The notes under the pieces were generated by a model. It was given only the letters and a program-made list of their open reading frames with translations, searched no databases and was not told the DNA's origin. A stretch of DNA of 35,107 nucleotides, counting the filler, from an uncultured Methanosarcinales archaeon (lineage in GTDB: Archaea > Nanobdellota > Nanobdellia > Woesearchaeales > CAYNLP01), in the NCBI GenBank assembly GCA_964398115.1. It is 17 parts of 17 records of this genome, joined end to end, with 100 filler letters (N's around TTAATTAATTAA, not from the genome) between each part and the next. Parts side by side here need not be neighbours in the genome. Positions count along the whole stretch, not along the records: positions 12,339 to 14,540 come from CAYNLP010000056.1; 16 more parts are not named here. One strand, given 5' to 3'. A program made the translations under genes and the position numbers. Each line of letters starts with the position of its first letter. Positions within the stretch are counted from its first letter, which is position 1. This document shows, in pieces, positions 2,493-33,256 of the stretch.

Positions 2493-2592
2493 NNNNNNNN
2501 NNNNNNNNNNNNNNNNNNNNNNNNNNNNNNNNNNNNTTAATTAATTAANNNNNNNNNNNNNNNNNNNNNNNNNNNNNNNNNNNNNNNNNNNN
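2493..2592. other. Artificial contig linker (44 N + TTAATTAATTAA + 44 N). Identical linkers at 5049-5148, 7579-7678, 9924-10023, 12239-12338, 14541-14640, 16759-16858, 18837-18936, 20875-20974, 22883-22982, 24772-24871, 26645-26744, 28408-28507, 30165-30264, 31842-31941, 33504-33603
   Basis: Exactly 100 nt each, with a 12-mer giving stops in all six frames; the intervening contigs decrease monotonically in length (2456, 2430, 2245 ... 1562 nt). Confidence 0.99.
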
Positions 2593-5252: not shown

Positions 5253-6134
5253 ATGACAGATCAACGCCTGAAGAAACCGATCAGCAAATTCGCAGGATTC
5301 CACGTAGACGAAAGACTCAAGACCATACTAGAACAACTACTCAGCGAAATAAACGCCGACTGGGACAACATCATCATCATAGACGGCGAAGAAGGAGCAG
5401 GTAAAAGCACAATCGCAATGCAGATCGCTCACGTCATGAGCAAAAAACTAGACAAAGAATTCACAGTAGATAATGTCATATTCAATCCAGAAAAAGTAGT
5501 AAAGAAACTAAGCGGTGGAAACAAAGAAGTATATGTATGGGACGAAGCATTCAAAGGAGCCAACAGCGCCAGAGCCATGAGCAACCTAAACCAAAGACTT
5601 ATGGAAGTATTCATGGAAGCAAGAAGCAACAATCACACGCTAATCATGGTGATGCCATGGTTCTACTTACTGGATAAATACTATATACTACAGAGAGCAA
5701 AATTCCTATTGCACGTAGTGGCGCACCAGAATAGCGAAAACGAGAGGGAAAGAGGATACGCATACATCTATCCAAGGAGTTACATGAGAAAACTATACAT
5801 AGAAGGAAAGAAAGCGGGAGACTATCAATATCAGAAGCATGTCAGGAGCCCGCACAACCCAGTACAATTCGGGCCAAAGTTCCCTATAGATAGAGAAGAA
5901 TATGAAAAGAAAAAACACCAATACAGGAAGAGGCAAGCTAGGGATCAGAACGTGAGTTGGAAGAAATATCAAAAAATACTAAAAGAACACAAAAAGATGT
6001 TCCATAAACTTTTGAATGATTACACACAAGAGGAGGTTGCGAATATAATGGGTATAAATTCTAGGGCGACTGTGGCTCAAAGAAAGCAGAGGGATTTTTA
6101 CAAAGATATTGAAGAGGATGAAGATGATGAATAA
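5253..6134 (+). CDS. P-loop ATPase (Zot/tailless-virus morphogenesis-like) with C-terminal HTH
   Basis: Walker A IIIDGEEGAGKST, Walker B VYVWDE, ARS.NHTLIMVMP.F..LD; C-terminal YTQEEVANIMGINSRATV. Confidence 0.75.
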   Translation: MTDQRLKKPISKFAGFHVDERLKTILEQLLSEINADWDNIIIIDGEEGAGKSTIAMQIAHVMSKKLDKEFTVDNVIFNPEKVVKKLSGGNKEVYVWDEAFKGANSARAMSNLNQRLMEVFMEARSNNHTLIMVMPWFYLLDKYYILQRAKFLLHVVAHQNSENERERGYAYIYPRSYMRKLYIEGKKAGDYQYQKHVRSPHNPVQFGPKFPIDREEYEKKKHQYRKRQARDQNVSWKKYQKILKEHKKMFHKLLNDYTQEEVANIMGINSRATVAQRKQRDFYKDIEEDEDDE

Positions 6135-6451: not shown

Positions 6452-6949
6452 ATGGCTCGTGATATACCCAAAGCACTAACAGAAGAAGAATACAAAAAAC
6501 TAATCAAAAACACAAACAAACCCAAACACAAACTCAGTTTTATGCTCGGATACGAATCAGGCCTAAGAGTCAGCGAAGTCACCAGCCTAAAACCCGAAGA
6601 TATAGACCAAAAAAGAAACCAAATCAGCATACACAACAGCAAAAGAGACAAAAGCCGCACAGTACCAATACCCAAAAACTTCAAACCCAAACACCTAAAA
6701 AGACTACCAATCAACCGCAGCGAAAGAACACTACAACGATGGTTCAACAAAGCACTAAAAAAAGCCAGCCTACCCCAGAAGTACACTTTCCACAGTTTAA
6801 GGCACGGTTTTGCCTTCCGACTCGCCGACAAAGGAATGAACATAAACTTCATACAACAACTAATGGGGCATGAAGCAGCAGAAACAACAATGATCTACAT
6901 GAAAGCCCGGCCAAAACAAGCAATAGACAAATACGAGGAAATGTTCTAA
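6452..6949 (+). CDS. Minimal tyrosine recombinase/integrase (catalytic domain only)
   Basis: GLRVSE (R), KRDKSR (K), HSLRH (H-x-x-R), LMGH, TTMIY (Y); only 165 aa. Confidence 0.92.
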   Translation: MARDIPKALTEEEYKKLIKNTNKPKHKLSFMLGYESGLRVSEVTSLKPEDIDQKRNQISIHNSKRDKSRTVPIPKNFKPKHLKRLPINRSERTLQRWFNKALKKASLPQKYTFHSLRHGFAFRLADKGMNINFIQQLMGHEAAETTMIYMKARPKQAIDKYEEMF

Positions 6950-12238: not shown

Positions 12239-12338
12239 NNNNNNNNNNNNNNNNNNNNNNNNNNNNNNNNNNNNNNNNNNNNTTAATTAATTAANNNNNN
12301 NNNNNNNNNNNNNNNNNNNNNNNNNNNNNNNNNNNNNN

Positions 12339-12924
12339 CCCATGCAAAATCTTCAATATAAGGATGGAATAATATCTTGTTATCATTTTCTATTTTTACG
12401 GTGGCTTGGCTTGCGAAGAAGAATTTTCTTTCGCCGTACATGTTGTTTGTTTTCGCCACCGTGCTGTTAGGCCCGTCCGCTCCTATTAGGTAGTCGGTTT
12501 TAAACCATTTCTTCCTTCCTGTTTCTACGTCTTTCACTTTTATTTTAGAAACTTTTCCATCTTGTCTTTTGCAGTCTAGGTATTTGTGTCCCGTCTTTAA
12601 TTCCGCGCCGTCATCCAGGGCTCTTTCTACAAGGTATTGGTCGTAACGTGTCCTGTTGACTATAAGGTTTGGTTCGTGAAAGTTTACTTCGACAAATTCT
12701 TTATCAGGGCTGTATATCCTAGCTGTTTCTATCTCTGTATCTATGAATTTCTCGTCAAAATCTATTAGGTTGTGGCTTACGTGTGTTAAGATTCCGGTGC
12801 ATCGTATGGGTTTGCCGCATTCGTAATGGTCTTCAAAGATTATAACGTCGTGACCCTTCTTGGTTAGTTCTCTTGCGGCGTAGCTTCCTGCTGGCCCTGC
12901 GCCTATAATTGTTACTCTTGCCAT
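12339..12924 (-). CDS. Geranylgeranyl reductase family FAD oxidoreductase (truncated)
   Basis: IIGAGPAG, KPIRCTG, R..YDQYL...A...GA and LIGADG.NS.VAK motifs. Confidence 0.88.
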
Positions 12925-13010
12925 TATGTTTTTTTCTCAATTCTTCTTGGGTTTATATTATTAACCAAAAAAACTATATTGACTATTTTATAGTAGTTAA
13001 AAAGCTAAGT

Positions 13011-13018
13011 TTTATATA
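13011..13018 (+). promoter_or_regulatory. Archaeal TATA box for the 13043 gene
   Basis: TTTATATA 25-32 nt upstream of the ATG, preceded by a purine-rich BRE-like AAAAG. Confidence 0.55.
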
Positions 13019-13042
13019 TCTCTTTCATTTTCCCAGCCTTAT

Positions 13043-14540
13043 ATGGGTTTAGAAAACAAAGTTGAAGATGTAAAAGGAAGCATTATAAATGGTTTAAGCA
13101 CTGCCGCAGCTTTAGGAGCGCTAATGATACCAAGCGAACAAGCATTAGCTCAACAACAAGTTCCTCAGCCTATAGAAATGCCTGAAGAATTCAGCATCTA
13201 CCTCGGAGGAAACGAACAAAGAGGATTAAAAGACGTTTCTGTAACGGAACAAAACCCACTAAGGCTATGCGTGGAAGAAAACACGCCCTACCTCATAACA
13301 TGGGAAGGAGAAAACACACAATTCATGTACGACGCCAATCAAGAAAACATGGACCTAGAACTAAGACTACTACAATCTGGAAACGTACACGACCATCCTT
13401 TATATGGTGGAAGTCTACACCACGAAGGAAACTTTGGCATTGCAGAACAGCACGGTCAAGAACAACTCGCAATAGATAATACTATAAACGTGACTTTCAG
13501 ACCGGAATGTTCCGAGGATCAAATGCCTCGGGGAGCAAATGTTCAAATGGTAAGACCTGATGAAAGATTCTTTGAAGAAGATGAAGACGGATACATGTCC
13601 AAAGCTGAAATAATAGAACACTATGATATAGACGGTGACGCTTTAGATGCGATGGCGAGACTCGGCATGGGTGTGCCTCGAGATGTGACAAGAACGCCAA
13701 GACCAGAAGAAGATGAGATAGAACGAGCAGAAGAATTTGATGTTGAAGAACTGGATGATACTGCACACCGACTTTACTTCGGCCTCCTAGCTGGTCCTGA
13801 CGCAAGGGTTGCACCAGACACTGTCTTTAGACAAGGAAGAGATCCAGAATACGCAATGGACGGATTTCAAATTTCTTACGAAGGAGAAACAAAAGAGTGG
13901 GACTTAAACGCAAGGTTTAGATCATGGAACATGGATATGGATGAAAGCACTCGGGAAAACACGTTTGGCCCTAGAAGAGCTTCCATGCCTGAATTCTTCG
14001 AAATTGAATCATTGTTCGCTGAAGCAGACAATCACTTACTAGGTGACTGGCTGATGGCAGGTCTAAGCGGGGAACTAACGTGGATAAGTACGCCTGGCAG
14101 GCAAACGACAAAAGTCTATAGACTCGGTGCAGGTCCTAGTCTTGAAATTGGAACGGCGGATAACAATTTGAAAGCTGGTTTGGAAGCTGTCATGGAAAAC
14201 TATACTAATGGCTTTGTTTCAAACTGGAGTTATGGGCCTCGGCTTGAGGCTAGCACGGAATTTGAAATATCGGATGATTTGAGTTTCCACGCCTCTGCTT
14301 ACTACCTCTCCATGCTGGAATCAGGTGATCAATTTGCAGTAGAAAGTGTTTTGAGGGATGAGGATAGCAGTATGTTGGATTGGGAAGGTCATTTGACTGC
14401 GAACTTGTTCAATGGTGAAAACTGGAAAGCTGGTTTGAATATTGGGGCTTTCTATCATGACGCTATTCGTAACAGGTCTAGGTTGTATGAAGATGGTGAT
14501 GTTTCTCAGGATCAAATGTTTGCTAGGTATGGGCCTGGTT
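13043..14540 (+). CDS. Secreted protein with putative C-terminal transmembrane beta-barrel (truncated)
   Basis: Signal-like TAAALGALMIPSEQALA-Q; from residue ~243 about 12 amphipathic strands with alternating short turns and long loops. Confidence 0.6.
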
Positions 14541-14640
14541 NNNNNNNNNNNNNNNNNNNNNNNNNNNNNNNNNNNNNNNNNNNNTTAATTAATTAANNNN
14601 NNNNNNNNNNNNNNNNNNNNNNNNNNNNNNNNNNNNNNNN

Positions 14641-18998: not shown

Positions 18999-19369
18999 GC
19001 AACGAAGAAGAGAGCTACAAAAAATACGACCACGCCAGCTCACTATCAAGGCAGATAGAAAGAGTAAACGAACAAATAGTCAGAGGATTATCTGGCAGCG
19101 AATACAGCGATAAAGACGACTACCTAGACAGTATAATCCTAGGTTTAATGACGATAGAAAATTTTTACCTGCACACATTTACAGACGAAAACTATAACAG
19201 AATCTCCAACAACAAAGTTTTTGGCTACAATACTAGAAAGAAACTTGAATTCATAAATAAAGCACAAAGACATCTTTCTAAATTAATGGATGAAGAAGAA
19301 CTATTCTTTACAACATACAAAAAGGAAAAACTCGGAAGCAAAGACAAAAAAAACAGGGATAACAAATGA
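18995..19369 (+). CDS. Hypothetical viral protein
   Basis: ATGA overlaps at both ends. Confidence 0.7.
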   Translation: MSNEEESYKKYDHASSLSRQIERVNEQIVRGLSGSEYSDKDDYLDSIILGLMTIENFYLHTFTDENYNRISNNKVFGYNTRKKLEFINKAQRHLSKLMDEEELFFTTYKKEKLGSKDKKNRDNK

Positions 19370-20391
19370 AACCGCTTAATGAATACATTAAAAATCCTAA
19401 CCTTGATACAGGCGGAGCCCTTGTAACTATTACAGGTCCGCCAGGCTGCGGTAAAACCAACTCTTTAACGCAATTGGCAATAGAACGTTTCGAGGAAGAT
19501 CATAAAGTTCTGTGGAGAGCTACGGAGCAAAGCCAGTGGGCTAATTTTTTGGCGAATGATATTCCGGTAGTGGTTTGGAAAGATGAAAACATTGAATCTG
19601 TTGATGCATGGGTAAGTAAGCAGAATGGAACTGAAAACCATGTTGATCTTGAGGAAAAAGTTGAAGCGGTAAAAAGTTTTTCAAGTGCTGATGAACTGGT
19701 GGGAAATGCTTGGAAAGATGCTGTGAATATTGTAATGGTTCCTGGTTTGCTTGGTGATACGAACGAAAAATATTATTTCAGGAAAACATGGATTAATTTA
19801 TTGCAGGGTCTTGTTGAGAGAAGGAATGTGGCCGAGCCCTACAGTTTTTTCACGGACGAAGGAGGCGATATTTGGCCTTGTCAACAGCAGCTTCGGAAAC
19901 CGTTTTACAAATTGGTGGTTGAAGATACGCCGCCTCTTTTAGCGCAGCTTCGGAAGCAAATGGTTTTCATGTATGTTGCTGCTCACAGCACTCATGATTT
20001 GCATTATTTTCTGTGGAAGATTAAAGGGAATACTATTGGTTATATGAGTAATTCTAATGTTAAGCAGCAGATTCATTCGGAGGTTATGCAGTCTAAGGTT
20101 AACCAGTTAAGTCGAGGTGAGATGGTTGTACCGCCTAAAGACCGGGCTGAATGGCTTTTGGCTTATGAGGCTGAGGATTTAAATTGGGTGGGTAAGGGTA
20201 GTAAGTTCCGTATGGAGTGGACGGGTGATATACCGGATGTTCTTGGTGAGGATGAAAGTGATGAGGGACAGGATGATGGTCGTTTGAATAAGGCTGAGGC
20301 TGCTAAAACAGCTTGGGAGAACAGTGATGAGTCGCAAGAGTTTTGGGCGGAAAAGTTTGGTGTTACGCAGTCTGCTGTAGCTCAAAGTTAG
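19366..20391 (+). CDS. P-loop NTPase, pleolipovirus ORF8-like, with C-terminal HTH
   Basis: GG....TGPPGCGKT, VLWR....SQW, Walker B FTDEGGDIWP, RK......AHS..D.H; C-terminal SQEFWAEKFGVTQSAV. Confidence 0.7.
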   Translation: MKPLNEYIKNPNLDTGGALVTITGPPGCGKTNSLTQLAIERFEEDHKVLWRATEQSQWANFLANDIPVVVWKDENIESVDAWVSKQNGTENHVDLEEKVEAVKSFSSADELVGNAWKDAVNIVMVPGLLGDTNEKYYFRKTWINLLQGLVERRNVAEPYSFFTDEGGDIWPCQQQLRKPFYKLVVEDTPPLLAQLRKQMVFMYVAAHSTHDLHYFLWKIKGNTIGYMSNSNVKQQIHSEVMQSKVNQLSRGEMVVPPKDRAEWLLAYEAEDLNWVGKGSKFRMEWTGDIPDVLGEDESDEGQDDGRLNKAEAAKTAWENSDESQEFWAEKFGVTQSAVAQS

Positions 20392-31971: not shown

Positions 31972-32835
31972 ATGAATAAACAGGAACTAAAAAAAGGTGA
32001 AACGAGAGTTACCACCTCATACAACAGGAAGGTAGCCGATGACAACTACGGCAACGAGGAAGTATTCTTCGGATTTTCGGAGGTAGTAGAAACGGAGGAA
32101 GCAGAAGAAAGGATTGAGGAGTTATATAATCAAGCTAAGTCCAAAACCCTAGACAAGCTTGGACTTTCTGACAGCAATTTTAATGAGATAAAAACCTTCA
32201 CGGGTGAAACAATACTTATAGACGAACAAAACCATTCTTACGCCGACTTAGACGGTAATAAACTGCTTTCAGGCTCTGAATACAAGAAAAAACTGGAGGA
32301 AGAGTTCGATTTAGAGGGTATAAGCAAGAATGTAGCCAAAAAATACGGAGTTGAGCAGCAAGTCATAAAGGATATGTGGTCGCACAACTCACAGACATCA
32401 AGGTTTATAGGTAACGCCTTACACAACGCATTGGAGCAATACTTCAAGTTCAATGGAATGGTTGAAGAAAAAGAATATCACCTACCGAACAACAAATATT
32501 TAAGAGAAGCCGTTGAAACATTCCCCAAGAAAGACTCTGATATTCTGCCAGAGGTATTGGTGTCGGATGTAGAAAACAAGAGGGCGGGAAGGATTGACGG
32601 AATAGAAAAGTTAGATGACAAAGTTTGTAGGGTTATAGACTTCAAATCAGACAGTAAGATTGAAAAGAAAAGAAACGGACAAAGAAAGGTTGACGGACAC
32701 TTTAATCAGTTGAGCTTTTATGCCCACGTACTGATGGCTCACGGTTGGGAGGTAGAAGGATTGGAGGTTTGGAACTATACGAACGAGTGGCAGGACTTTC
32801 AGTCGGAAGTCCNNNNNNNNNNGTCCTTGAGTTAA
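31972..32835 (+). CDS. Phage PD-(D/E)XK (RecB/Cas4-like) exonuclease
   Basis: G.ALH..LE, E, AGRIDG, IDFKS and QL.FY motifs; N gap near the end. Confidence 0.8.
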   Translation: MNKQELKKGETRVTTSYNRKVADDNYGNEEVFFGFSEVVETEEAEERIEELYNQAKSKTLDKLGLSDSNFNEIKTFTGETILIDEQNHSYADLDGNKLLSGSEYKKKLEEEFDLEGISKNVAKKYGVEQQVIKDMWSHNSQTSRFIGNALHNALEQYFKFNGMVEEKEYHLPNNKYLREAVETFPKKDSDILPEVLVSDVENKRAGRIDGIEKLDDKVCRVIDFKSDSKIEKKRNGQRKVDGHFNQLSFYAHVLMAHGWEVEGLEVWNYTNEWQDFQSEVXXXXSLS

Positions 32836-32851
32836 AAGAAATTTAATTAAA

Positions 32852-33256
32852 ATGTATTACTCAAAAGCAATACTTACGGGACGTATAGCGGATGATTTAG
32901 AGGTTAAATCAACTAACAAAGGAACGTCAGTAGTCAATATGACTGTTGCTGTCAACTACAATGATGACGTTGACTTCTGGGATGTTGTAGTCTTCGGACA
33001 GCAAGCAGAACATTGTTCTTCTTATCTAGGAAAAGGAGACATAGTTTTGGTGGATGGACGGCTTACCAAAGACTCTTGGGAAGACTCGGACGGCAACACG
33101 AGAACAAAAGCAGAGATAGTCGCCAGCAATGTAGTATTCGGACCTAACAGGAATGAAGTGGACGAGGTTGATGAGTTTGTGGAAGAAAACCAAGTTGTAA
33201 ACCAAGGTGAAGGTAACGAAGATGAAGAAATTGACCCTGAAGAAATTTCATTTTAA
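32852..33256 (+). CDS. ssb: Bacterial/phage-type single-stranded DNA-binding protein
   Basis: ILTGRI..D.E, VAVN, VVFG.QAE....YL.KG..V.V.GRL...WED.DG..R...EIVA; acidic tail ending DPEEISF. Confidence 0.93.
   Translation: MYYSKAILTGRIADDLEVKSTNKGTSVVNMTVAVNYNDDVDFWDVVVFGQQAEHCSSYLGKGDIVLVDGRLTKDSWEDSDGNTRTKAEIVASNVVFGPNRNEVDEVDEFVEENQVVNQGEGNEDEEIDPEEISF

Follow-up and report, generated by a model that had tools for sequence, protein, structure and literature searches.

Transmembrane beta-barrels are a hallmark of diderm bacteria and of their organelle descendants, in which they are assembled by Omp85 machines. In type Va autotransporters a signal, a passenger and a helix precede a 12-stranded C-terminal barrel, and the OmpM, SlpA and Omp-alpha tethers of deep-branching diderm bacteria combine an N-terminal wall-binding domain, a coiled coil and a C-terminal barrel. 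We know of no barrel-assembly machinery in archaea, and to our knowledge an outer membrane is absent in most of them. Ignicoccus, ARMAN and Altiarchaeum are the few archaea for which a review lists a double membrane. A hint of porin-like barrels in a DPANN lineage comes from a relative of the PopA superfamily reported in Altiarchaeales (PMC12228718); it differs from the protein described here both in family (PopA-like oligomeric chambers of 8 strands) and in lineage. No description of outer-membrane-type barrels in Woese- or Nanoarchaeota was found in the literature searched. A porin-like barrel protein is unexpected for archaea.

The protein in question, P0001, resembles several of these systems in parts of its build. 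With the OmpG and DUF481 (YdiY) barrels of Proteobacteria (PF09381, PF04338) it shares the size of the barrel part (at least about 255 aa), the amphipathic strands, and the tight turns on one side with long loops on the other; DUF481 is its only Pfam match, and several of its ESM look-alike clusters belong here. It differs from them in that its profile similarity is sub-threshold, and pairwise comparison with E. coli OmpG and YdiY does not rise above noise. Moreover, P0001 has about 200 aa of additional N-terminal domain, sits in an archaeal context and is very acidic, with a pI of 4.3. The 8-stranded OmpA/OmpX-like anchors of OMP_b-brl (PF13505) are the best profile match of a protein encoded at the corresponding position in a related locus, L034, in which 8 strands were counted by eye, whereas P0001 has 12 strands and no match to that family. 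To the OmpM, SlpA and Omp-alpha tethers the likeness lies in a non-barrel N-terminus followed by a linker or coiled coil and a C-terminal barrel; the proteins considered here lack an SLH domain and do not resemble the tethers in sequence. Whether the C-terminal half of P0001 is indeed a transmembrane barrel of the bacterial outer-membrane type is, in our judgement, evenly balanced.

The contig and its archaeal neighbour

The window, which is the whole stretch of DNA that was analysed (35,107 nucleotides), is a concatenation of pieces of 1.2-2.5 kb joined by N-linkers, 21 sequence pieces being counted in the analysis. Therefore only the contig listed first in Table 1 is the physical context of P0001, and the fragment of a geranylgeranyl reductase (GGR) family gene, P0002, is the sole gene physically linked to it. 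The last codon of P0001 before the linker is no stop codon, and since a window-wide comparison found no overlap between the contig ends and other pieces, the C-terminus is not recoverable from the window. The reading frame, which an earlier note on this DNA had delimited, is open throughout, at a GC content of 0.437, and its RSCU correlates with that of the rest of the window at r=0.80, the second rank among 27 genes. P0001 is thus a real gene: in DNA with a GC content of about 0.43 its frame stays open for 499 codons, and its codon usage matches the bin. Scanned for Rfam families and for tRNAs, the window gave no matches.

Table 1. Positions of the features discussed (window coordinates, or coordinates in the named locus)
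Feature	Position	Strand	Remarks
Physical contig, 2202 bp	12339..14540	.	linkers on both flanks
GGR-family flavoprotein (P0002), N-terminal 195 codons	12340..12924	-	cut by contig end
Divergent promoter region, 118 bp	12925..13042	.	TATA-like box, leaderless layout
P0001, orphan ORF, 499 open codons	13043..14540	+	3' end cut by contig end
Signal-like N-terminus, residues 1-36	13043..13150	+	by eye: n-region polar, h-region at 14-29, Q37 preceded by A-L-A
N-domain, Cys 76 and 156, then very acidic, probably helical linker (about 165-242)	13151..13744	+	
Putative barrel domain, twelve amphipathic beta-strand-like segments, residues 243-497	13769..14533	+	
Artificial linker (44 N, TTAATTAATTAA, 44 N)	14541..14640	.	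non-biological, terminates contig
Slot candidates in related loci	L034:4687-5820; L029:4215-5849; L073:3556-5889		barrel-like, divergent from GGR
Slot candidates in related loci	L052:3285-5861; L061:3190-5862		barrel-like, divergent from GGR

The GGR-family gene starts at 12924 and runs away from P0001. Its product has an FAD_binding_3 match and an IIGAGPAG motif, and it matches TIGR02032 with E=5.6e-34 and 118.2 bits, under the cut-off of 158.8 because the fragment covers 195 aa out of the roughly 365 aa of the full protein. It is 60-64% identical to its closest relatives, the full-length proteins P0003-5, of which one is named as GGR family and P0005 as Nanoarchaeota archaeon. All 8 organism-bearing names among the matches of P0002 are Woese- or Nanoarchaeota, and all 80 genome loci retrieved have archaeal titles. 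In the GGR tree the window sequence and P0003-5 form a clade (100/99) that is sister to the GGR of locus L073 (99/94), and the whole group is placed within rows labelled Woese- or Nanoarchaeota. In the spacer between the two genes a TATA-like TTTTATATAT lies at 13010-13019, about 28 nt 5' of the P0001 ATG, and no Shine-Dalgarno sequence was found upstream of the start; several starts of other window genes have similar TATA-like boxes 25-36 nt upstream. Judged by the identity and the tree of the GGR, the promoter layout and the fit of codon usage, the contig is archaeal, of the Woese/Nanoarchaeota type of DPANN. The archaeal context, the archaeal TATA box and the divergent GGR gene, all claimed in the earlier note, are thus borne out, and the bacterial contig that it had named as a refuter was not found.

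The bin itself calls for caution here, for the window is made of short pieces of the size at which mis-binning is common, the codon usage of these pieces is uneven (RSCU r from 0.17 to 0.83) and the ESM look-alikes of P0001 are all bacterial. P0001 might then be bacterial or phage DNA that entered the genome by mis-binning or chimeric assembly, and there would be no archaeal barrel to explain. We regard this as very improbable: a GGR of a well-supported DPANN clade is physically joined to P0001 at a distance of 118 bp, P0001, like other window genes, has a TATA-like box and no Shine-Dalgarno sequence, its codon usage is among those nearest to the bin, and in the collections searched it has no match to bacterial, phage or plasmid sequence.

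Domain layout and strand pattern of P0001

No relative of P0001 was found by a word-indexed search, either for the whole protein or, with E allowed up to 10, for residues 235-499, by exhaustive phmmer over 1.84 billion representatives, or by a scan of GTDB genomes. Searches with tblastn gave no homologue in 80 DPANN loci (best E=4.7) and no paralogue within the window (best E=1.2), and phage, plasmid and PHROG collections gave no match. A single PDB sequence match (E=1.5) was noise. As far as these searches reach, P0001 is a sequence orphan, therefore neither conservation nor covariation is usable; the taxonomic spread of homologues, a check proposed in the earlier note, came to nothing as the searches returned no homologue.

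The domain layout was described by that note correctly. A signal-like N-terminus can be read by eye, with an n-region whose net charge of -1 is atypical for a signal peptide, and the N-domain, which has no Pfam or PHROG match, contains the two cysteines ascribed to it; they are the only ones of the protein. Of the approximately 12 amphipathic strands claimed from 13769 onwards, all twelve quoted peptides were found in their order. The strands span 7-13 residues and have aromatics at their ends. Where the register is clean, as it is in 11 strands, the hydrophobic face comprises 59 residues (1 charged, 16 aromatic, 50 from the set LIVMAFWY) and the opposite face 62 residues, of which 19 are charged. 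Soluble beta-sandwiches and meanders also yield an alternating amphipathic pattern. The claimed alternation of tight turns and long loops is equally real: connections 2, 4, 6, 8 and 10 measure 3, 6, 4, 5 and 4 aa, while connections 1, 3, 5, 7, 9 and 11 measure 22, 23, 10, 7, 22 and 17 aa. Given the strand calls, a complete separation in this direction has a probability of 1/462. In residues 243-497 the period-2 hydrophobicity is higher than in shuffles on both scales (KD z=2.7, reached by 13 of 2000; WW z=2.2, reached by 43 of 2000).

Two strand-count scores, a Kyte-Doolittle dyad count and a residue-class score, were tested on E. coli outer-membrane proteins against negatives and reached an AUC of 0.80-0.93, with overlap, so that neither soluble beta proteins nor helical membrane proteins are cleanly separated from outer-membrane proteins. 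At one setting P0001 scores 11 (outer-membrane range 7-12), a value reached by 3/64 and 7/394 negatives; at stricter settings it scores 6, reached by 16/64 and 101/394. This overlap, which includes soluble beta proteins such as fimbrial subunits, argues for another reading of the C-terminal half, namely a beta-rich domain of a secreted surface protein, soluble or associated with an S-layer and built as a sandwich, jelly-roll or open meander. Such a domain would cross no membrane, and its porin likeness would be generic mimicry by amphipathic strands. AlphaFold2 without alignment also returned no barrel: the pLDDT was 30.6 for the whole protein and 30.7 for the C-domain, with partly helical junk, and the structure prediction suggested in the earlier note thus gave no usable fold. 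Additionally, every profile match lies under the curated thresholds. The DUF481 (PF04338) match of P0001 has 14.8 bits and E=0.029 for the whole protein, and 16.4 bits and E=0.0095 for the C-domain alone (residues 375-435), against a gathering threshold of 21.1.

The features of the strands themselves speak against a soluble domain, since there are 12 of them of the length given above, with terminal aromatics and a strict long/short alternation, in a C-domain without cysteine. The language-model comparison speaks against it as well. With ESM-Atlas features the whole protein has 30 matches at 0.91-0.92, and the C-domain alone reaches 0.95 at the top, scores to be read against the fact that 4-10% of shuffled proteins reach 0.9 or more and about 1% reach 0.95 or more, and that the score is uncalibrated for protein parts. 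All clusters of the whole protein with a Pfam family are bacterial outer-membrane barrels (Phage_OMP, TonB_dep_Rec_b-barrel, CymA, OMP_b-brl, OmpG, OmpA_membrane and DUF481). Those of the C-domain are mostly barrel families, namely OpcA/Autotransporter (0.94), CymA, Porin_O_P, OmpG, OMP_b-brl and Phage_OMP, the others being DUF6850 and clusters unnamed or named DUF3943. No Ig, jelly-roll or lectin family was among the ESM matches of either. Direct comparison with E. coli barrels added nothing: BLASTP of P0001 against YdiY gave no match, and a likeness to OmpG (E=0.004, a score reached by 2 of 300 shuffles) was dismissed as noise because RlmL, which is no barrel, scored higher among 89 E. coli controls.

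The order of signal, N-domain, helix-prone acidic linker and exactly 12 visible C-terminal strands is also the order of type Va autotransporters, a likeness of architecture only. P0001 could then be an autotransporter-like display module, in which the acidic helix would thread the 12-stranded barrel and the N-domain would lie on the far side. The OpcA/Autotransporter cluster among the ESM matches agrees with this. The contig end ...MFARYGPG also resembles the end of L034, where the last strand ...MVGLRYAP is followed by a short basic tail, so strand 12 may be the last in P0001. However, the autotransporter beta-domain (PF03797) has no match in P0001 at E up to 10, the passenger would be small, no outer membrane is known from this organism, and further strands may follow past the contig end. 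We therefore judge the proposal improbable; it is in any case a sub-case of the barrel explanation and would still need a membrane.

Barrel-like genes at the same slot in related genomes

The gene divergent from the GGR is also barrel-like in 5 of 75 related DPANN loci (L029, L034, L073, L052 and L061). The crude strand count flagged 7 of 394 DPANN ORFs, and three of the seven were the gene in this position (L029, L034, L073); L052 and L061 were added by eye. Look-alikes of the putative P0001 barrel thus recur at this slot. The C-domain of L034 matches OMP_b-brl with E=5.7e-6 and 27.0 bits, 1.7 bits short of the gathering threshold of 28.7, which together with its 8 strands is consistent with a barrel that would serve as a membrane anchor for another domain. 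The C-domains of L052 and L061 match DUF481 with E=0.066 and E=0.16. Barrel-family Pfam matches were found in 3 of 6 C-domains; among 100 C-terminal pieces drawn at random from these loci there was 1 such match (Fisher p=4e-4). The one control match, OprD with E=0.011 in L053:7287-8066, is a false positive in an alpha/alpha-toroid-like protein.

All five slot proteins have signal-like N-termini, and their N-domains are variable. In BAM-dependent outer-membrane proteins the C-terminal beta-signal ends in an aromatic residue; L052 and L061 end in ...RFLLQAEF, with a terminal Phe. In both, about 200 aa of coiled coil (weak SMC matches) precede the barrel-like end. Pairwise Smith-Waterman comparison with shuffles found no similarity of the barrel-like slot domains to P0001 or to one another except between L052 and L061, and phmmer against the PDB with the C-domains of L034, L073 and L029 gave nothing meaningful. 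The next gene on the same strand encodes a protein of 958-1200 aa with Big_9, cadherin, He_PIG or PKD domains in four of the five slots (not in L073), and each of the five has the GGR on its opposite flank.

The same loci bear on both alternatives raised above. The recurrence of barrel-like genes in this slot on contigs of 10-29 kb argues against mis-binning, all the more as at least four of the five contigs have archaea-typical genes: STT3/AglB beyond the GGR in L029, L052 and L061, and ScpB in L073. For the soluble domain the loci weigh on both sides. The slot by the GGR is chiefly a surface-protein slot, and in 13 of 75 loci it holds secreted proteins of the CARDB, TSP3 or Ig type; however, the weak Pfam matches of four independent sequences are all to barrel families, against the single match in the controls. 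Taken together, we consider a soluble or S-layer-associated domain a doubtful explanation, yet one to be reckoned with.

A possible envelope barrel and its implications

The explanation that we propose, and in which we have middling confidence, is that P0001 is an exported DPANN envelope protein with a signal-like N-terminus, an N-domain with linker and a C-terminal barrel. After the N-domain of about 130 aa with its two cysteines would come about 75 aa of highly acidic linker, and the C-terminus would fold into an up-and-down antiparallel beta-barrel like those of bacterial outer membranes, with twelve strands before the contig end. A lipid layer would then separate the N-domain and the five tight turns from the six long acidic loops, a topology that is the same in bacterial barrels with N-terminal periplasmic or passenger domains, and the barrel may anchor the N-domain in the membrane and/or form a water-filled pore for it. 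The barrel fold of P0001 is what we infer from this evidence, as are its insertion into a membrane, its topology and its role. The DPANN barrel of the earlier note stands in part: the DPANN contig, the barrel-like ESM and DUF481 signals and the recurrence at the slot agree with it, while the fold itself found no support from AlphaFold2.

The gene occupies a hypervariable surface-protein slot, divergent from a lipid-saturating GGR gene. In relatives S-layer-like Ig/CARDB proteins, a prepilin peptidase, or barrel-like proteins followed by giant Ig-repeat adhesins are found in this slot, and AglB/STT3 lies beyond the GGR. We tentatively suggest, with less than even confidence, that some Woese/Nanoarchaeota-type DPANN archaea possess true transmembrane beta-barrels of the kind known from bacterial outer membranes. 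These would be encoded in a hypervariable envelope locus, divergent from GGR and AglB and often accompanied by a giant Ig-repeat adhesin, and would evolve too fast for mutual recognition by sequence. No Omp85 or POTRA was seen among the 17 + 23 window ORFs scanned. Because neither BamA nor an outer membrane is known there, such barrels would insert unaided into the cytoplasmic membrane of the cell that makes them, be the sign of an outer lipid layer not yet recognised, or enter the membrane of a host. If planted in a host membrane, the barrel would be the symbiont's anchor or conduit; a pore in a host envelope or in a second membrane is pure conjecture.

If the explanation is true, recurrent DPANN barrels could either mean that more archaea than assumed have a second lipid layer, or be a molecular candidate for the attachment of these symbionts to their hosts and the tapping of them, a question that is now addressed chiefly by tomography (PMC11329633). 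The finding would also bear on barrel assembly without BAM. P0001, L034, L029, L073, L052 and L061 are short candidates by which these possibilities would be directly testable.

The contig and its archaeal origin

The window (35,107 bases) is a composite and not a single molecule: 21 sequence pieces, each 0.2-2.5 kb long, make up 17 blocks, between which stands an artificial linker (44 N, TTAATTAATTAA, 44 N), and there are four further gaps of 10 N. The pieces are arranged in roughly descending size, and gene neighbourhoods that span the linkers are not real. The true contig bearing P0001, the ORF under study, holds only two genes, each cut by a contig end: P0001 itself and, divergent from it as the earlier note had stated, the 5' fragment of a geranylgeranyl-reductase-family gene (GGR). 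Comparison of the contig ends with all window pieces gave no overlap at either end, and the rest of the window is tied to this contig by binning only. Archaeal markers are found on the other pieces (aEF-2, RadB, deoxyhypusine synthase, presenilin-type PSH protease, archaeal-type TrpRS and a PolB fragment).

Coordinates of the features in the window and in related DPANN loci
Feature	Location	Strand	Size or content	Remarks
Artificial linkers (examples)	window 2493-2592, 12239-12338, 14541-14640		44 N + TTAATTAATTAA + 44 N	
True contig bearing P0001	window 12339-14540		2202 bp	two genes
GGR-family gene, 5' fragment	window 12340-12924	-		cut by contig end
TATA-like element	window 13010-13019		TTTTATATAT	
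P0001 ORF	window 13043-14540	+		cut by contig end
nSTAND3 / nSTAND_NTPase5 ORFs	window 5253-6134, 19366-20391	+		on different pieces
Phage-integrase-family ORF	window 6452-6949	+		
PD-(D/E)XK nuclease	window 31972-32812	+		
SSB	window 32852-33256	+		adjoins the nuclease
Giant secreted repeat proteins	L029:805-4215, L034:1072-4671, L052:369-3242, L061:271-3147	-		directly downstream of barrel-like gene, opposite GGR
Collagen-repeat protein	L009:4147-5823	-		GGR-divergent, Woesearchaeota locus
MATCAP-family proteins	L066:9577-10356, L065:7236-8015	-		DPANN loci

Two other ORFs match nSTAND3 / nSTAND_NTPase5, families of conflict-system-type STAND NTPases. A phage-integrase-family ORF and, on another piece, a PD-(D/E)XK nuclease with an adjoining SSB may stem from mobile elements or viruses within the bin.

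The contig is archaeal, as the earlier note had it, as far as 2.2 kb can show. The GGR fragment matches TIGR02032 (E=5.6e-34), and its closest relatives, P0003-5, are 64, 63 and 60% identical to it, the last being named 'geranylgeranyl reductase family protein [Nanoarchaeota archaeon]'. All eight organism-bearing names among the GGR matches are Woesearchaeota, Nanoarchaeota or Nanoarchaeia, and each of the 80 loci recovered by a profile-guided scan of species-representative genomes has an archaeal title. A maximum-likelihood tree of 81 GGR N-termini unites the window GGR with P0003-5 (support 100/99) and places the genome locus L073 as sister to this clade (99/94). In codon usage P0001 agrees with the remainder of the window at r=0.80, a value exceeded by only one of the 27 genes compared, and its GC (0.437) and pI (4.3) lie inside the range of the other window genes. 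Across the 27 genes the RSCU correlation to the rest is heterogeneous between pieces (r=0.17-0.83), which may reflect a mixed bin or genes too short for stable estimates.

Going through the titles of the 80 GGR loci, we count 26 (e.g. L001, L034 and L073) that are labelled 'uncultured Methanosarcinales archaeon'. The label on these MAGs is probably a placeholder or an error, since labelled rows interleave with Woesearchaeota and Nanoarchaeota in the GGR tree; the gene order is common to both.

Sequence features of P0001 and resemblance to known barrels

The description of P0001 in the earlier note was confirmed. The reading frame is open over 499 codons, and all 12 peptide strings called as amphipathic strands are present in the order claimed at residues 243-497, starting at DNA position 13769. 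Eleven of the 12 strands keep a two-residue register, in which the hydrophobic face (59 residues) has 50 LIVMAFWY, 16 aromatic and 1 charged residue and the opposite face (62 residues) has 19 charged ones. Long loops (22, 23, 10, 7, 22 and 17 residues) alternate perfectly with tight turns (3, 6, 4, 5 and 4) across the 11 connections, which has a probability of 1/462 given the strand calls. The period-2 hydrophobicity is modestly above shuffles, with z=2.7 on the KD scale (equalled by 13 of 2000 shuffles) and z=2.2 on the WW scale (43 of 2000). Cysteines 76 and 156 of the N-domain are the only ones in the protein. The N-terminus carries a putative signal, in which a net negative n-region and a 16-residue hydrophobic stretch are followed by A-L-A ahead of Q37. 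The proposed archaeal TATA box corresponds to TATA-like TTTTATATAT about 28 nt 5' of the ATG; a Shine-Dalgarno sequence is absent, a layout common to several other window genes.

P0001 is a sequence orphan. No homologue was found by a word-indexed search of 5.8 billion clusters with the whole protein or with residues 235-499 (E up to 10), by exhaustive phmmer over 1.84 billion representatives (E up to 1e-3), or among GTDB genomes, phages, plasmids, PHROGs and PDB sequences. The sole Pfam match is to DUF481, an outer-membrane barrel family; it covers residues 375-435 and stays under the gathering score (E=0.029 for the whole protein, 0.0095 for the C-terminal domain alone). Protein-language-model features of the whole protein retrieve 30 clusters at 0.91-0.92, and those with a Pfam family are all bacterial outer-membrane barrels (Phage_OMP, TonB_dep_Rec_b-barrel, CymA, OMP_b-brl, OmpG, OmpA_membrane, DUF481). 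The C-terminal domain alone scores up to 0.95, a value that about 1 in 100 shuffled proteins attain in a calibration made on whole proteins, not parts; its look-alikes are OpcA/Autotransporter, CymA, Porin_O_P, OmpG, OMP_b-brl and Phage_OMP, together with DUF6850 (barrel status unchecked), unnamed and DUF3943-named clusters. Three weak but independent signals, from DUF481 and from the features of the whole protein and of the C-terminal domain, concur in suggesting an outer-membrane barrel.

AlphaFold2 without an alignment gave partly helical junk (pLDDT 30.6 for the whole protein, 30.7 for the C-terminal domain). A BLASTP match to E. coli OmpG (E=0.004, spanning three strands) was treated as noise, because among 89 E. 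coli controls the methyltransferase RlmL gave a higher score than OmpG did.

Two simple strand detectors were calibrated with 11 outer-membrane barrels of E. coli as positives; 394 DPANN ORFs and 64 further non-helical proteins of E. coli served as negatives. The detectors discriminate with an AUC of only 0.80-0.93. P0001 falls within the barrel range at every setting; its score of 11 at one setting is equalled by 3 of 64 E. coli and 7 of 394 DPANN negatives, and its score of 6 at stricter settings by 16 of 64 and 101 of 394. Therefore, the sequence pattern alone cannot tell a transmembrane barrel from soluble amphipathic beta structure. The main rival reading, that the C-terminal domain is a soluble or S-layer-associated beta domain, is possible but seems to us less likely than the barrel.

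Proposed placement of P0001 in a lipid layer

The evidence for a barrel in P0001 is suggestive, not decisive. We see roughly even chances that P0001 is exported and acts as an anchor and/or pore through a C-terminal outer-membrane-type beta-barrel; export, fold, insertion and topology are all what we infer. The barrel would have 12 strands, or more past the contig end, and would be embedded in a lipid layer with the tight turns and the N-domain on the insertion side and the long acidic loops on the far side. This layer could be the membrane of the cell itself, an outer layer so far unrecognised or a host membrane at a contact site. Two-membrane archaea, including ARMAN and Altiarchaeum, are listed in PMC8871954, and DPANN-host bridges are covered by the review PMC11329633. 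On purely architectural grounds an autotransporter-like variant is attractive, in which the acidic helix would pass through a barrel of 12 strands and the far side would display the N-domain.

Such a barrel would work like DUF481/OmpG, OMP_b-brl and autotransporter proteins; however, P0001 is not assignable to any of them, because its scores against their profiles are all either sub-threshold or missing. Our full-text literature search found no published description of outer-membrane-type barrel proteins in Woesearchaeota or Nanoarchaeota; the only printed hint found of DPANN porin-like barrels is one sentence in PMC12228718, according to which Altiarchaeales may have a distal relative of PopA.

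Barrel-like proteins beside other DPANN GGR genes

The crude strand detector picked seven DPANN ORFs, and three of them (L029, L034, L073) lie immediately upstream of GGR and point away from it, as P0001 does. All 80 GGR loci were surveyed, and 75 have an ORF of at least 90 aa in the position equivalent to P0001: A24 prepilin peptidases (16), secreted CARDB/TSP3/MopE-type surface proteins (13), ABC1 kinases (5), proteins that are barrel-like by eye (5) and unclustered ORFs (36). The GGR-divergent gene is highly variable between DPANN genomes, and the slot classes follow the GGR tree only loosely; one such gene encodes collagen triple-helix repeats (E=5.9e-9). Two DPANN loci also contain strong matches (E ~1e-42) to MATCAP, the microtubule-associated tyrosine carboxypeptidase family.

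The five barrel-like proteins (L029, 545 aa; L034, 378 aa; L073, 778 aa; the homologous pair L052 and L061, 859 and 891 aa) have the same plan as P0001: a polar N-extension, a signal-like hydrophobic stretch with an A-x-A-like end, an N-domain that varies and resembles a coiled coil in L052 and L061, and amphipathic strands over the C-terminal 190-255 aa. The final residues of both L052 and L061 are ...RFLLQAEF. In L034 a basic tail follows ...YMVGLRYAP, an ending reminiscent of the ...MFARYGPG with which P0001 reaches the end of its contig. In a Pfam scan of lone C-terminal domains, that of L034 reached 27.0 bits with OMP_b-brl (E=5.7e-6; gathering score 28.7), those of L052 and L061 matched DUF481 (E=0.066 and 0.16), and those of L029 and L073 matched nothing. 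As controls, 100 non-helical ORFs were drawn at random from these loci; the same scan of their last 260 aa gave one barrel-family match (OprD, 0.011), which is false, the protein being an alpha/alpha-toroid-like enzyme. Of the 36 unclustered slot proteins, 34 gave none (28 in a separate scan and six as part of the control scan; two were omitted for N runs). With hits counted at E up to 0.1 (P0001, L034, L052), a Fisher test of 3/6 against 1/100 gives p=4e-4, and p=0.005 when P0001 is left out (2/5).

Except for L052 with L061, the barrel-like domains have no pairwise similarity to each other or to P0001, so homology among them is not shown; what links them to P0001 is their place in the slot, their architecture and the GGR tree, where L073, one of the five, is the genome locus nearest to the window. 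The contigs of the analogues span 10-29 kb, and other typically archaeal genes are present on at least four of them (STT3/AglB in L029, L052 and L061; ScpB in L073). This disfavours contamination as a general explanation, and we consider it very improbable that the short P0001 contig is itself contamination or a chimera.

In four loci (L029, L034, L052 and L061) the next gene downstream, in the same orientation as the barrel-like gene, encodes a secreted protein of 958-1200 aa made up of Big_9, cadherin-like, He_PIG and PKD repeats. GGR lies on the opposite flank, and beyond it, in three of these loci (L029, L052 and L061), comes the oligosaccharyltransferase STT3/AglB. The analogue neighbourhood is an envelope locus that combines lipid saturation, N-glycosylation and surface proteins, and the arrangement of barrel-like gene, giant repeat protein and GGR looks like a recurrent envelope locus of DPANN archaea.
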